In this document: in pieces, positions 2,894 to 10,661 of the stretch
Numbering within the stretch: the stretch's first letter is position 1
How the letters are laid out: each line of letters starts with the position of its first letter
Virus genome (UHGV): UHGV-0289470
Length of the DNA stretch: 28,488 bases
Origin: a virus
Strand: one strand, 5' to 3'
The notes under the pieces: model-generated
What the model was told of the DNA's origin: nothing
Databases searched by the model: none
Seen by the model: the letters and a program-made list of their open reading frames with translations, nothing else
Program-made: the position numbers and the translations under genes

Positions 2894-3094
2894 ATGATGA
2901 CAACGATTGGCGTTCTTTACGACGAGTGGACGAAAGAGCGATTCAGGCGTCATTACAAGATGGCAAAGGTCATCCGCAACAAGCCCTATCGCAATGACTA
3001 CCGCAAGGTCATGGCAAAAAACATGCAGAAGAATATCGACAAGATATTCCCACGTGGAAAGGCCGTTTGGCGCTTACTTAAAAACGAGTGGTGA
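2894..3094 (+). CDS. hypothetical small basic protein (accessory slot)
   Basis: ORF track; ATG 2894 or 2897 after GGAGAGG (2886-2892). Lys/Arg-rich 66 aa, no recognisable domain. Confidence 0.45.
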   Translation: MMTTIGVLYDEWTKERFRRHYKMAKVIRNKPYRNDYRKVMAKNMQKNIDKIFPRGKAVWRLLKNEW

Positions 3095-3105
3095 TGGAGA
3101 GGAAT

Positions 3106-3459
3106 ATGGACGAATCAAGAAAGTCTTTCGAGCAATGGGCATCAAAGCAATTCAATATCTCAGTAGAGGAAATTGTTAATAAGCGAATGCTGGGTGATTA
3201 CCTGCACAACCCAGACTTACATAATGCATGGCAAGCATGGATAGATAGCAGGGCGGCAATAGAAATTGAGCTACCAAAGCCTCATGCACATCTTATATGG
3301 ATTCAGGCTGGTCATGCGCCTGACGATTATTGGGATGATGTGGCGGTGTCATATAGCGAAAAGGATAAATGCTGCGACGGTTCAGACCGCTATCCTGTGC
3401 ATGCTGGATGGGAAATTGAAGAGGTTCTTCGCGCCGCTGGAATCAAAGTGAAGGAGTAA
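3106..3459 (+). CDS. hypothetical protein, about 117 aa (accessory slot)
   Basis: ORF track 3088..3459. ATG 3106 follows GGAGAGG (3096-3102); ATG 3094 (overlapping the upstream stop) is an alternative. No recognisable domain. Confidence 0.5.
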   Translation: MDESRKSFEQWASKQFNISVEEIVNKRMLGDYLHNPDLHNAWQAWIDSRAAIEIELPKPHAHLIWIQAGHAPDDYWDDVAVSYSEKDKCCDGSDRYPVHAGWEIEEVLRAAGIKVKE

Positions 3460-3461
3460 CG

Positions 3462-3908
3462 ATGAAGCAAATATACATACTTCGCAACGAAGCAATCAGA
3501 AATAACGCCATAGACGCCATTCTCTCACTACCCATCGACGGCAAGTCACCCCACGAAGTCCACGTTAGAGAACCCAAACGCAGCAAAGCGCAGAATGACC
3601 GTATGTGGCCGATGCTGAACGATGTTTCTCGTCAGGTGCTATGGCATGGTCAACGGCTGGCACCGGAAGACTGGAAAGACCTGTTCACTGCCCTGTGGCT
3701 TAAGACCAAAAAACTGGAGCAACGAAGTGTGCCTGGTATCGACGGTGGCGTAGTCATGCTTGGCGTGCGTACCAGCAAAATGCGAAAGGCCAGCATGACT
3801 GAGCTTATCGAAATCATGTTCTGGTTCGGCTCAGAGCGCAACGTGCGGTGGAGTGATGACTCCCGGCGAGAGTATGAATGGTCACAACGAAAAGGTAGGG
3901 ATGCATGA
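3462..3908 (+). CDS. ninB: NinB/Orf-family recombination protein
   Basis: Strong AAGGAG RBS at 3451-3456. The translation shares the lambda NinB pattern as recalled (..QNDRMW..L.DVSRQV.WHG..L..E.WK..FTA..). Confidence 0.8.
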   Translation: MKQIYILRNEAIRNNAIDAILSLPIDGKSPHEVHVREPKRSKAQNDRMWPMLNDVSRQVLWHGQRLAPEDWKDLFTALWLKTKKLEQRSVPGIDGGVVMLGVRTSKMRKASMTELIEIMFWFGSERNVRWSDDSRREYEWSQRKGRDA

Positions 3909-4432
3909 CTATCAAATCAAATACGCCAGCGTCAGATAGGTATCGGCTTATTGAGGATTATCTGTATTTAGACGGAGATACAGTCAGATACAAAAAGGAC
4001 TCGCTAAAACACCCCAACCACAGCCACCGGGCAGGAGATGAAATTAAAACATCGATAAATGGATCTGGGTATAGACAGGTGTGTTTTGCAGGCATTCAGA
4101 TGTTTGTTCACGTAGTTGTTTTTGCGCTGCACAACAAAAGAATGCCATTGAAAAATATTGACCATATTAACGGAAACAGGCTGGACAATTCCCCAAAAAA
4201 TCTTAGGGAGGCAGGCCGGATAGCAAACAGCCGAAATCAGAAAACTAAGTGCAATAGCCGTTCTGGAATAAAAAATGTTTTATGGAACAAGCAAAAAAAT
4301 AAATGGGCCGTTCAAGTGCGCACAGATTTTGGCCGGTTGTATTTTGGGCTCTATGAAGATCTTGAACTTGCTTGTTTGGTTGCCAGTGAGGCTATCAACA
4401 AATATCACGGACAATATGCGAAGGTTGTATGA
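3905..4432 (+). CDS. HNH homing-type endonuclease with C-terminal AP2-like DNA-binding domain
   Basis: HNH motif ..NIDHINGNRLDNSPKNLR..; C-terminal segment KWAVQVRTDFGRLYFGLYEDLELACLVASEAINKYHG is typical of AP2 domains. ATG overlaps the ninB stop (ATGA). Confidence 0.7.
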   Translation: MTIKSNTPASDRYRLIEDYLYLDGDTVRYKKDSLKHPNHSHRAGDEIKTSINGSGYRQVCFAGIQMFVHVVVFALHNKRMPLKNIDHINGNRLDNSPKNLREAGRIANSRNQKTKCNSRSGIKNVLWNKQKNKWAVQVRTDFGRLYFGLYEDLELACLVASEAINKYHGQYAKVV

Positions 4433-4959
4433 TTAAGCATAAATCAGAAACACCAAAAGAAGTTAGAGACTGCTGGCAAACGCCGCTTTGGCTTTTTGAT
4501 GCACTGGATATTGAGTTTGGATTCTGGCTGGATTCGGCAGCGAGCGACAAAAATGCTCTGTGCGCTCACTGGTTAACTGAGGCCGACGACGCGCTAAATT
4601 CTGAGTGGATAAGCCACGGTGCAATCTGGAATAACCCACCGTACAGCAATATCAGGCCGTGGGTGGGAAAAGCCGCTGAGCAGTGCATACAACAGCGACA
4701 GACGATAGTGATGCTTGTGCCAGAGGATATGTCTGTCGGATGGTTCAGCAAGGCTCTGGAGAGTATTGACGAAGTTCGCATCATTACTGATGGACGGATT
4801 AATTTTATCGAACCATCGACAGGGCTGGAGAAGAAGGGAAACAGCAAAGGCTCAATGCTACTGATTTGGCGACCGTTCATCAGTCCTCGACGGATGTTTA
4901 CTACCGTATCCAAAGCGGCATTGATGGCGATCGGGCAGGGCGTCAGGAGGGCGGCATGA
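4429..4959 (+). CDS. phage DNA N6-adenine methyltransferase (Dam-like, NPPY motif)
   Basis: Motifs [15 protein letters not shown]...DSAAS...NPPYS are typical of the phage N-6-adenine-methyltransferase family. Start overlaps the HNH stop. Confidence 0.7.
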
Positions 4960-5138
4960 GGCGACAGCGACGAAGTATCACCGACATAATCTGTGAAAAC
5001 TGCAAATACCTTCCAACGAAACGCTCCAGAAATAAACGCAAGCCAATCCCAAAAGAATCTGACGTAAAAACCTTCAACTACACGGCTCACCTGTGGGATA
5101 TCCGGTGGCTTAGAGAACGTGCGAGGAAAACAAGGTGA
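4956..5138 (+). CDS. ninE: NinE
   Basis: Nested in ORF track entry 4866..5138. ATG 4956 with CAGGAGGG RBS. Product [52 protein letters not shown].. matches lambda NinE as recalled. Confidence 0.7.
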
Positions 5139-5305
5139 TTGACCAAAATCGAAGTTACGAACAAGGAAGTGTCGAGCGAGCTTTAACGTGCGCTAACTGC
5201 GGTCAGAAGCTGCATGTGCTGGAAGTTCACGTGTGCTCCGATTGCTGCGCAGAACTGATGAGCGATCCGAATAGCTCAATGTACGAGGAAGAAGACGATG
5301 AGTGA
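5135..5305 (+). CDS. ninF: NinF
   Basis: Not in the ORF track (GTG start, 56 aa). GTG 5135 overlaps the ninE stop; GAGGA RBS at 5123-5127. Product [56 protein letters not shown] matches lambda NinF as recalled. Confidence 0.6.
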
Positions 5306-5510
5306 TTACCTGAAATGGTATCTCTGCCACCGCTGGTTAATTAAGTTTGCTGTAAAAGACTGGATGACTGCGGATGCCAACAAGCTTAAACAACGAAAGG
5401 ACTATTACTACGCCAGAATGAAGGAAAACTACTGCTCAATCCGCACTCGCATATTTATTAAAAAAGACCTTCAGTCAATTCTTCAATTGCGAGGGAAGGT
5501 AAATGGCTAA
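5298..5510 (+). CDS. hypothetical 70-aa protein occupying the position where lambda has ninG
   Basis: ORF track; overlaps ninF by 8 nt. No recognisable domain. Confidence 0.4.
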   Translation: MSDYLKWYLCHRWLIKFAVKDWMTADANKLKQRKDYYYARMKENYCSIRTRIFIKKDLQSILQLRGKVNG

Positions 5511-5793
5511 TCTACGCAAAGAAGCGCGCGGCAGAGAATGCCAGGTACGTATTTACGGCATATGCAATGGCAATCCTGAAACTACAGTTCTGGCACATTA
5601 CCGGATGGCTGGAATTTGCGGAACGGGAATGAAACCTGACGACCTGATCGGCGCATGGGCTTGTAGTGACTGCCACGCGGAGATCGACCGACGCACCCAT
5701 AATCTCGACAACAAAGACGCCAGACTTTACCACCTCGAAGGCGTGATCAGGACGCAGGCGATACTACTGAAGGAGGGGAAGATTAAGCCATGA
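5503..5793 (+). CDS. YbcO-like DUF1364 protein (putative Cys-rich metal-binding nuclease)
   Basis: 96 aa, MANLRKEARGRECQVRIYGICNGNPETTVLAHYRMAG..CSDCHAEIDRR, the conserved pattern of DLP12 YbcO-type proteins. GAGGGAAGG RBS. Confidence 0.65.
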   Translation: MANLRKEARGRECQVRIYGICNGNPETTVLAHYRMAGICGTGMKPDDLIGAWACSDCHAEIDRRTHNLDNKDARLYHLEGVIRTQAILLKEGKIKP

Positions 5794-6152
5794 ACGAATA
5801 TCAGTTTGTGCTTCCATACCCACCGTCGCTGAATACCTACTGGCGAAGACGGGGAAGCCAATACTACATCAGCGATAAAGGCCAGAAATACCGAAAAGAC
5901 GTTCAGCAAATCATCCGCCAACTTAAGTTAGACATTTTCACCAAATCACGACTCCGCATCAAAGTCATCGCAGACGTTCCAGACTCCCGCCGCCGCGACC
6001 TCGACAACATCCTGAAAGGTTTACTCGACTCCCTTATCCACGCCGGATTTGCGGAAGACGACGAGCAATTCGATGACATTCGCGTAATTCGTGGTGTGAA
6101 AGTACCAGGCGGACGGCTTGGAATAAAAATCACCGAACTGGAGAACGTATGA
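5790..6152 (+). CDS. rusA: RusA Holliday-junction resolvase
   Basis: 120 aa; LPYPPSLNTYWRR...RRRDLDNILKGLLDSL...GGRLGIKITELE matches the RusA family closely. Confidence 0.85.
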   Translation: MNEYQFVLPYPPSLNTYWRRRGSQYYISDKGQKYRKDVQQIIRQLKLDIFTKSRLRIKVIADVPDSRRRDLDNILKGLLDSLIHAGFAEDDEQFDDIRVIRGVKVPGGRLGIKITELENV

Positions 6153-9690: not shown

Positions 9691-10041
9691 ATGCCGCCAC
9701 GAATCCCAAAAGCCTGCCGTGCTCGAGGTTGCCGTAATACCACGACAGACCCGTCAGGCTACTGCGAAAGCCACAAAAGCGAAGGCTGGAAGCAATACAA
9801 GCCAGGACAATCCCGTCATCAGCGCGGCTACGGTTCGAAGTGGGACGTTATCCGTGCGCGTGTGCTGAAACGTGACAAAGGCCTGTGTCAGTTATGTCTG
9901 CGTGCCGGGATGGTGCGTGAAGCTAAAACCGTTGACCACATCATCCCTAAAGCGCATGGCGGCACCGATGCAGACAGTAATCTGCAGAGCCTGTGCTGGC
10001 CGTGCCATAAGGCGAAGACGGCCCGTGAACGGTTGAAGTGA
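9691..10041 (+). CDS. HNH endonuclease associated with the terminase (HK97 gp74-like)
   Basis: Cys-rich N-terminus, HNH core ..VDHIIPKAHGG..N.QSLCWPCH..; immediately upstream of TerS. Confidence 0.8.
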   Translation: MPPRIPKACRARGCRNTTTDPSGYCESHKSEGWKQYKPGQSRHQRGYGSKWDVIRARVLKRDKGLCQLCLRAGMVREAKTVDHIIPKAHGGTDADSNLQSLCWPCHKAKTARERLK

Positions 10042-10127: not shown

Positions 10128-10166
10128 ATACCCGCGAAAAATGAAATTTAACCAGGAGTGCCGCAT

Positions 10167-10661
10167 ATGGCTGGAACGGCGGGGCGTTCCGGGCGTCGCC
10201 CCAAGCCAACGGCGCGCAAGGCGCTGGCCGGAAACCCCGGCAAGCGAGCCCTGAACAAAGATGAACCTGTTTTTACGCCCATCAAAGGTGTTGAGCCACC
10301 AGAGTGGTTCGCTGAAGAAGATCTCCCTCTCGCCACGATCATGTGGCAACTGACAACCAAAGAACTCTGCGGTCAGGGCCTGTTGTGCGTGACTGACCTC
10401 GCGGTGCTTGAGCGGTGGTGCGTGGCCTATGAGTTCTGGCGACGTGCCGTGAAAAATATTGCCATACAGGGCAACACCATCACCGGTGCAATGGGCGGCA
10501 GGGTCAAAAATCCGGAGCTGACCGCCAAAAAAGAACAGGAGTCCGAGATGAGCAGCACGGGGGCAATGCTCGGACTCGACCCCAGCAGCCGCCAGCGTCT
10601 GATTGGCCTGGCGGGGCAGAAGAAAGCCACTAACCCGTTTCTGAAAATCATCGAGTCATGA
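10167..10661 (+). CDS. terminase small subunit (P27 family)
   Basis: ORF track 10158..10661; ATG 10167 after AGGAG (10154-10158). N-terminus [30 protein letters not shown] is typical of P27-family TerS. Confidence 0.75.

Follow-up and report, generated by a model that had tools for sequence, protein, structure and literature searches.

Genes in the nin operon

The 28,488-nucleotide (nt) stretch of DNA analysed here (UHGV virus genome UHGV-0289470, referred to as the window) contains a lambdoid nin operon on its plus strand, identified from its open reading frames (ORFs) and profile searches, in which a gene for an HNH endonuclease lies directly upstream of dam, encoding a phage N6-adenine methyltransferase. 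Comparison with related prophages and phages indicates that the HNH gene is carried by a 537-nt cassette (3931-4467) within the first dozen codons of dam, and we consider it probable that this is a free-standing homing-endonuclease cassette of the HNH_3 plus AP2 type, specialised on phage dam genes of the PF05869 family and lodged here in the gene of an orphan GATC methyltransferase. The genes of the region are as follows.

3462-3908, plus strand: ninB, an Orf-family recombination mediator (PF05772, 4e-48), the neighbour 5' of the HNH gene
3905-4432, plus strand: HNH-AP2-type endonuclease ORF, intact, 175 aa (HNH_3, 5e-10; phrog_99, 3e-42)
4429-4959, plus strand: dam, phage orphan N6-adenine methyltransferase, 176 aa (PF05869, 7e-65; TIGR01712 equivalog, 1e-77)
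4956-5138, plus strand: ninE, the neighbour 3' of dam (PF05322, 3e-43)
5135-5305, plus strand: ninF, intact in the window (NinF by profile search)

Overlapping stop and start codons of the form ATGA join ninB to the HNH gene (3905-3908), the HNH gene to dam (4429-4432) and dam to ninE (4956-4959), and these three junctions, read in the DNA, agree exactly with the ORFs and overlaps given in a preliminary description of the window made from its sequence alone. Because the same tight coupling runs on into ninF and further down the operon, it is the normal style of the nin operon and no special feature of the HNH and dam pair. A Shine-Dalgarno-like sequence (AGGTAGGGA) is present at 3893-3901, near the 3' end of ninB. 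The PGAP annotation already labels the two genes 'HNH endonuclease' and 'phage N-6-adenine-methyltransferase'.

Structure of the insertion in dam

To define the insertion we used a set of 106 loci pooled from E. coli genomes and IMG/VR, in which dam has one of two 5' ends: the A-type, which is that of the resident gene, and the B-type, a substitute brought by the HNH cassette. Alignment of occupied and empty alleles identifies three segments in the window.

3905-3930, plus strand: captured 5' stub of the resident A-type dam, the start codon being within these first 26 nt, which encode MTIKSNTPA and are now the start of the HNH gene
3931-4467, plus strand: inserted cassette of 537 nt, standing in place of the 10 nt ACACGACAAG of the empty allele
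4429-4467, plus strand: cassette-borne B-type dam 5' end of 13 codons, whose start overlaps the HNH stop; found only with the HNH gene or its scars

In phage mEp213, which lacks the HNH gene, and in 64 other loci, ninB is followed by ATGACTATCAAATCAAATACGCCAGC, ACACGACAAG and GACTGCTGG; in the longer mEp213 read ATGACTATCAAATCAAATACGCCAGC and ACACGACAAG continue into GACTGCTGGCAAACGCC, and the encoded Dam begins MTIKSNTPAHDKDCWQTP. This empty site, at the mEp213 ninB/dam junction, is centred on ATGACTATCAAATCAAATACGCCAGCACACGACAAGGACTGCTGGCAAACGCC. The window HNH ORF opens with the same 26 nt, which are identical to dam nt 1-26 of mEp213 and of all A-type loci (65/65), such that the predicted protein reads MTIKSNTPA followed by SDRYRLIED. 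The dam gene then restarts at 4429 on a homologous and diverged 5' end, ATGATTAAGCATAAATCAGAAACACCAAAAGAAGTTAGA, which joins GACTGCTGG; all other HNH-containing loci have the same arrangement, with the common 26 nt, the HNH gene, a segment running from ATGATTAAGCAT to GTTAGA, and then GACTGCTGG. The HNH ORF is thus fused in frame to the start codon and first 26 nt of dam and therefore inherits the dam ribosome binding site and the coupling to ninB. At its 3' end the cassette supplies 13 foreign, AT-rich dam codons whose ATG overlaps the HNH stop, and full-length Dam would therefore still be made.

The association between the HNH gene and the substitute end is strict. Every HNH-containing locus has a B-type dam 5' end (34/34), every A-type locus lacks the HNH gene (65/65), and the B-type end occurs only alongside the HNH gene (34/34) or beside the scars of its deletion. 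No fixed differences distinguish occupied from HNH-less alleles downstream of 4468, where 11 common dam polymorphisms segregate in both classes, and a co-conversion tract linked to the HNH gene was looked for in the body of dam and not found. HNH-containing alleles lie behind three types of ninB, one of them with a GTGA junction. The HNH ORF has a G+C content of 41% as against 50-52% in the flanking dam and ninB genes, and the 39-nt substitute end is lower still at ~28% (counted from the sequence).

Two simpler descriptions of this arrangement were rejected. A clean intergenic insertion between ninB and dam is ruled out, since the HNH ORF opens with 26 nt that belong to the 5' end of dam, and an in-frame, intein-like insertion is ruled out, since the net gain of 527 nt is not a multiple of three, the HNH gene has its own stop codon and dam restarts in another frame. 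The preliminary description had proposed that the HNH and dam genes were inserted together, in register, between ninB and ninE, and that comparison with HNH-less relatives could define a homing site. Such a comparison does place the insertion, within the 5' coding end of dam and not at an intergenic site, and the inserted DNA is the HNH block without dam; the overlaps stand, and the pair as a unit of insertion does not.

Among the 65 HNH-less A-type alleles, dam nt 19-36, which span the equivalent of the 3930/3931 junction, are polymorphic at 5 of 18 sites, as against ~0.12 per site (6-13%) elsewhere in dam. This excess would fit either relaxed constraint on the N-terminal tail or selection for resistance to cleavage, and with such small numbers it is suggestive only.

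A second occupied site in a divergent dam lineage

The metagenomic contig L006 contains a divergent version of the locus with the gene order DUF1367-HNH-Dam-NinE, in which a DUF1367 gene is upstream of an HNH protein 75% identical to that of the window, and Dam (PF05869) is 48% identical. The L006 HNH protein begins MTDKS followed by EQKYRLIED, and its Dam begins MIKHKSQTPIESRDCW, with 13 of the first 16 residues the same as in the window Dam. At the DNA level L006 and the window share 79% identity in the first 48 nt of dam, 75% in the body of the HNH gene and 63% in the remainder of dam. Empty counterparts are provided by the loci L125-L128, which have the order DUF1367-Dam-NinE and Dam proteins 91-94% identical to that of L006; in these Dam starts MTDKSNTPPEDKDRW (in a longer read, MTDKSNTPPEDKDRWRTP). 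Their DNA reads ATGACCGACAAATC, AAATACCCCGCCAGAAGACAAAGACAGA, TGGCGCACCCC, and the occupied L006 site reads ATGACCGACAAATC, TGAACAAAAG, the HNH gene, CGCGATTGC and TGGCGCACCCC, with flanks 89-96% identical to those of its own empty site. Comparison with L006 also suggests that the right end of the window cassette may extend to 4473.

There are thus two independent occupied and empty pairs that show a presence/absence polymorphism at a fixed site in otherwise collinear genomes. As judged from these alignments, in two dam lineages the nuclease ORF has taken over the start and first codons of the resident dam, and the same foreign dam N-terminus has come along with it. In a separate observation, L006 encodes a C5 cytosine methylase (PF00145; L006 coordinates 3447-4553) between ninE and ninF.

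Distribution, decay and loss of the HNH gene

The 2.1-kb region around the HNH and dam genes has matches in prophages of 2,188 of the 5,426 complete E. coli genomes and in 421 deposited phages. The HNH gene is missing from most of these, where coverage of the query falls to ~60%, and ninB, dam and ninE follow each other directly in mEp213, VT2-Sakai and others. The HNH gene itself is present in 34 of the 5,426 genomes, at 43 places and with 98-100% identity, and in all of the 34 matches listed it is annotated directly upstream of a phage dam; the copy in the E. coli F344 prophage is 100% identical to the window gene at the nucleotide level. No HNH protein with more than 60% aa identity was found among deposited phage genomes, and a scan of genome contigs with the HNH protein, which covers one genome per species and so misses a rare prophage gene, returned one distant match only.

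A B-type dam end is found in 40 E. coli genomes, 34 with the HNH gene and six without. Together with four IMG/VR loci (L046, L057, L058 and L060), the HNH-less B-type alleles, in 6 of the 5,426 genomes, have four types of deletion junction. In E. coli E2 the first 11 nt of the HNH gene are joined to its last 29 nt across a 7-nt direct repeat, the two copies of which are present in the window.

3909-3915, plus strand: left copy of the CTATCAA repeat used in the E. coli E2 deletion
4392-4398, plus strand: right copy of the CTATCAA repeat used in the E. coli E2 deletion

In L057 and L060 the last ~25 nt of the HNH gene are joined to the end of ninB, in E308 and L046 GAGGG is joined to TTGAATGA, which is the signature of the HNH end, and in TW10590 and L058 the junction lies exactly at ATGA. 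Two of the four junctions keep 25-40 nt of the HNH gene, and all of the deletions observed leave the B-type dam end and never the A-type. That the B-type end might be an independent, pre-existing allele was considered and found unsupported, given that two junction types hold remnants of the HNH gene and one its end signature.

Other loci contain HNH copies that are broken and not deleted: IS100 interrupts that of L007, L030 has a premature stop, L031 a frameshift, and L032 both a frameshift and a 5' truncation. Dam is 176 residues long in every locus that holds the whole gene; the HNH gene is found broken beside an intact dam, and the reverse was never seen. This pattern fits the way in which homing endonuclease genes (HEGs) commonly invade, decay and are lost; here, loss of the HNH gene leaves a target that is recoded and, presumably, resistant. 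We note that in L007 (coordinates 633-2434, from E. coli 503829) the IS100 element lies after approximately HNH codon 13 and parts the HNH gene from ninB, leaving a truncated HNH ORF and an intact dam.

A different HNH-AP2-like gene, 33% identical to the one studied here, is present within ninF of the E. coli EC02 and E308 prophages (L009, 4085-4739, and L003, 4220-4929). At this site NinF acquires a new C-terminus after HVLEVHVC and the original 3' end persists downstream as a second 'NinF'; the E308 copy is a pseudogene. Several endonuclease genes that have lodged in small ORFs are therefore present in the nin region.

The HNH nuclease

The 175-residue HNH protein has two recognisable parts.

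4103-4228, plus strand: HNH_3 nuclease motif, residues 67-108 (PF13392), with the conserved catalytic residues
4265-4411, plus strand: AP2-like DNA-binding domain, residues ~121-169, with three strands and a helix, from profile searches and the AlphaFold model

The HNH_3 match scores 39.2 bits against a cut-off of 24.8 (E=5e-10), and the beta-beta-alpha-metal catalytic residues D86, H87, N99 and N108 are invariant in an alignment of 29 homologues. When the profile of these 29 sequences is compared with structurally-determined proteins, the best match is to I-HmuI (PDB 1U3E; 4e-8, more precisely 4.4e-8), followed by plant AP2 domains, including those of WRI1 (1.3e-3) and TEM1 (9e-3). The AlphaFold model has a mean predicted local distance difference test (pLDDT) score of 86, with residues 1-8 unstructured and an average of 64 for residues 1-10, and its top Foldseek match is again 1u3e (probability 0.99), with a global TM-score of just 0.39 because the orientation of the domains differs. 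PADLOC returns a weak 'homing endonuclease' match.

The 'HNH-AP2' label of the preliminary description is well founded for the nuclease motif and less so for the second domain. The C-terminal fragment falls below the Pfam threshold for AP2 (E=0.057; 14 bits, cut-off 33). The C-terminal unit of the model superposes on the TEM1 AP2 domain at 1.8-2.2 Å over ~50 residues (probability 0.99-1.0), and several homologues with ~40% identity (P0012, P0020 and P0031) have a precomputed match to PF00847. We conclude that an AP2 domain is predicted from the combined profile, fold and homologue evidence and not from the Pfam cut-off. Proteins with HNH and AP2 domains are a recognised family of HEG products in phages, cyanobacteria and protists (PMC10448857). 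More distant homologues of the window protein (≤50% identity) are found in phage settings unrelated to this one, for example with thioredoxin and tail-fibre genes, which is what a family of site-specific selfish genes would be expected to show. The dN/dS between the two HNH lineages, that of the window and that of L006, is 0.169/1.56, which indicates long-term purifying selection on the nuclease and a protein that has long been functional.

The Dam methylase

The window Dam matches PF05869 over its full length with 218 bits (cut-off 28) and the TIGR01712 equivalog with 259 bits (cut-off 97), and an NPPY motif can be read from the translation at residues 68-71 (WNNPPYS). It is 95% identical (163/172 residues) to the VT2-Sakai Dam, M.EcoVT2Dam, reported to be an orphan enzyme with GATC as its target (PMC6602927), and the window enzyme is by this similarity predicted to be GATC-specific. 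Nearly all of the differences are in the first 12-13 residues, where 13 cassette-encoded residues stand in for MTIKSNTPAHDK of M.EcoVT2Dam; this divergence is attributable to the HNH insertion. PADLOC ranks the protein best on orphan-methyltransferase models, with far weaker matches to Type II methyltransferases, which bears out its earlier assignment as an orphan phage enzyme. Dam is a resident gene of the nin region; it is neither within the mobile unit nor the modification partner of the nuclease. Several Dam homologues, for example P0139, P0144 and P0151, are fused to PF00145 domains.

Proposed homing and alternative explanations

Comparison of occupied, empty and deleted alleles establishes the position of the cassette, its boundaries and content, the capture of the dam start, the restoration of the dam ORF, and the recurrence, sporadic distribution and decay of the element. 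We propose that the nuclease would nick or cut HNH-less dam near codons 6-15, beside the conserved DNA coding for (D)CW(Q/R)TP, and that recombinational repair from an occupied allele would copy the cassette in. No GATC occurs in this putative target region. Occupied alleles, and those that have lost the HNH gene and kept the substitute 5' end, would be immune because the target site is disrupted or recoded. The HNH protein would be translated by coupling to ninB, and Dam by restart at the ATGA.

Several observations weigh against this proposal. Cleavage and homing are inferred, and the putative target site is read from the insertion point alone. The HNH gene is rare, being present in ~1.6% of dam-bearing nin regions, and its polymorphism within the E. 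coli clade is near-neutral (12 codons with amino acid changes against 5 synonymous), such that many copies, possibly including that of the window, may no longer be under selection. The cassette-borne dam end shared between the two lineages is a short stretch (38/48 nt and 13/16 aa), and the left junctions of the window and L006 are 12 nt apart, so that at least one of the events was illegitimate and not clean homing. Finally, lambdoid mosaics recombine at gene borders, and plain homologous recombination could spread an HNH-dam module with no nuclease activity.

This last point is the basis of an alternative that seems to us unlikely, in which the HNH-dam module moves passively by ordinary homologous recombination and the nuclease is either inactive or serves the phage in some other way, such as degrading competitor phage DNA or excluding markers. 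Boundaries that coincide with gene starts or lie close to them, a common feature of lambdoid mosaics, the low frequency of the HNH gene, its near-neutral recent evolution and its several broken copies are all in keeping with such a history, and for recent E. coli evolution it is hard to dismiss. It is, however, difficult to account by homologous recombination alone for the same architecture in a dam gene only 63% identical in DNA, with flanks 89-96% identical to its own empty site; moreover, the right boundary is inside dam and not at a gene border, and the nuclease has been under long-term purifying selection. The reverse history, in which the HNH gene is ancestral and its deletion from an HNH-containing ancestor gave rise to the common A-type dam, appears extremely improbable. 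The HNH gene has indeed been deleted, with four types of junction, but every deletion observed leaves the B-type end, and that N-terminus is known only with the HNH gene or its scars, whereas the A-type N-terminus (MTIKSNTPAHDKDCWQTP) resembles the widespread N-terminus of enterobacterial Dam homologues (for example, MTDKSNTPAEHKDCWQTP); the HNH gene is also compositionally foreign.

The pair might alternatively behave as a restriction-modification-like system, Dam methylation shielding the phage DNA from a nuclease that attacks unmethylated incoming DNA, and the strict adjacency of the HNH gene to a PF05869 dam, even in L006, together with the translational coupling of the two genes, would suit this. 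We regard it as highly improbable. The adjacency is accounted for by an insertion site inside dam, and dam occurs overwhelmingly without the HNH gene (2,188 genomes have the region as against 34 with the HNH gene). The HNH gene is lost or broken beside an intact Dam and never the reverse, which is not the joint inheritance of an interdependent pair; and the host is already Dam+, which would make discrimination based on GATC pointless. The nuclease has the fold and domain architecture of homing enzymes, and the PADLOC matches point the same way for both proteins. The preliminary description had likewise favoured a homing-type HNH beside an orphan phage Dam over restriction-modification, and the distribution, the one-sided decay and the identity of the closest solved structure, I-HmuI, all sustain this.

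Relationship to known elements

The HNH protein resembles I-HmuI, encoded in an intron of Bacillus phage SPO1, in that a beta-sheet DNA-binding region at the N-terminus precedes an HNH(N) beta-beta-alpha-metal motif of the pattern DH...N...N. The two share ~22% identity and differ in that I-HmuI is intron-encoded and has a helix-turn-helix C-terminal domain, whereas the window protein is free-standing with an AP2-like C-terminal domain. I-HmuI is a nickase; the window protein is a predicted nuclease with which either a nick or a double-strand cut is compatible. Descriptions of HNH-AP2 HEGs cover phages, cyanobacteria and protists (Magnani et al. 2004, as cited in PMC10448857) and include the 'IPA-HNH' HEGs of Vibrio phage ICP1. 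Like the HNH-AP2 genes, the window gene encodes an N-terminal HNH and a C-terminal AP2 domain, is free-standing, and occurs sporadically in phage genomes beside conserved genes. In contrast to the ICP1 proteins, whose domains are too divergent for the Pfam HNH_3 profile, the window protein passes HNH_3, and it is found in temperate lambdoid prophages at the non-essential accessory gene dam and not at essential replication or structural genes.

A hidden HNH domain, ShiLan, has been reported within DNA methylase genes of actinophages (PMC11855218). As with ShiLan, a homing-type HNH gene lies here inside the ORF of a phage DNA methyltransferase and has a disjoint distribution among close relatives. 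ShiLan differs in being located mid-gene, where in-frame translation adds it to the methylase as an extra loop, with the HNH in another frame, whereas the window HNH gene has its own in-frame start, taken from dam, and its own stop, after which dam restarts; the methylase families and hosts also differ. The window Dam has the same position between ninB and ninE as M.EcoVT2Dam of VT2-Sakai (933W-type), as well as the NPPY motif and the 163 shared residues of the 172 aligned.

Free-standing HEGs of the T4 family split or abut host genes, as with mobE, which splits nrdA in Aeromonas phage Aeh1, and the seg and mob genes. The window cassette is similar in that an endonuclease gene lies in or at the edge of a host ORF whose function is kept, is sporadic, and would leave occupied alleles immune through altered flanks. 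It differs in that dam is not split into two functional pieces; the upstream stub of 9 codons is fused to the nuclease, and a homologous replacement 5' end is supplied. The arrangement also recalls e14 and phage 21, both of which insert in icd, and many tRNA-integrating phages, which bring along a replacement for the end of the gene that they enter. As in e14 and phage 21, the incoming DNA interrupts one end of a gene, and a diverged version of that end, carried by the element, makes the ORF whole again. Integration of those elements relies on tyrosine integrases and att sites and exchanges the 3' end, whereas a presumed homing nuclease and the 5' end are involved here.

A broader reading, to which we give about even chances, is that phage dam genes across the Enterobacterales have in the HNH cassette a dedicated parasite, which invades the 5' coding end of divergent dam genes and has evolved a 'repair kit'. 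The kit would consist of the start-codon fusion, used for expression, and a recoded dam N-terminus that moves with the cassette, repairs the methylase and makes the allele immune, an immunity that outlasts loss of the nuclease. If so, it would be the homing-endonuclease counterpart of integrases that carry a substitute gene end, and a simple and tractable system in which to measure homing, co-conversion and the homing cycle in temperate phages. No description of this HNH element of the nin region turned up in literature searches. Both HNH-AP2 HEGs and orphan phage Dams are already well known; what appears to be undescribed is the capture of the dam start codon, the substitute 5' end that travels with the cassette and the scars left in empty alleles, and these are still variations on established homing-endonuclease biology.

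These findings correct the annotation of the locus, which is no restriction-modification system or defence locus and has an ordinary orphan phage dam with a selfish passenger in its first codons, and they account for the divergent Dam N-terminus in these prophages and for the inconsistent calls of the dam and HNH starts. Because occupied, empty and scarred-empty alleles can be matched in lambdoid phages that are easy to manipulate, homing, immunity through target recoding and endonuclease loss become directly approachable in temperate phages. Elements of this sort have received much less study there than in lytic phages of the T4 type.

Other genes of the window

The late genes of the window are 97% identical to those of SfII/SfV-type temperate myoviruses. 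A second, unrelated HNH gene (PF01844, 7e-16) is present at 9691-10041 on the plus strand, directly 5' of the terminase small subunit gene (Terminase_4) at 10158-10661; this is the usual packaging-associated HNH of HK97/SfV-like phages and not a homing enzyme. Two small ORFs of the nin region, 3088-3459 and 5298-5510, both on the plus strand, have no Pfam family, and 3088-3459 matches only phrog_343, to which no function is assigned. The second of these has ninF on one side and, on the other, a YbcO-family nuclease gene (5503-5793) and then rusA (5790-6152).

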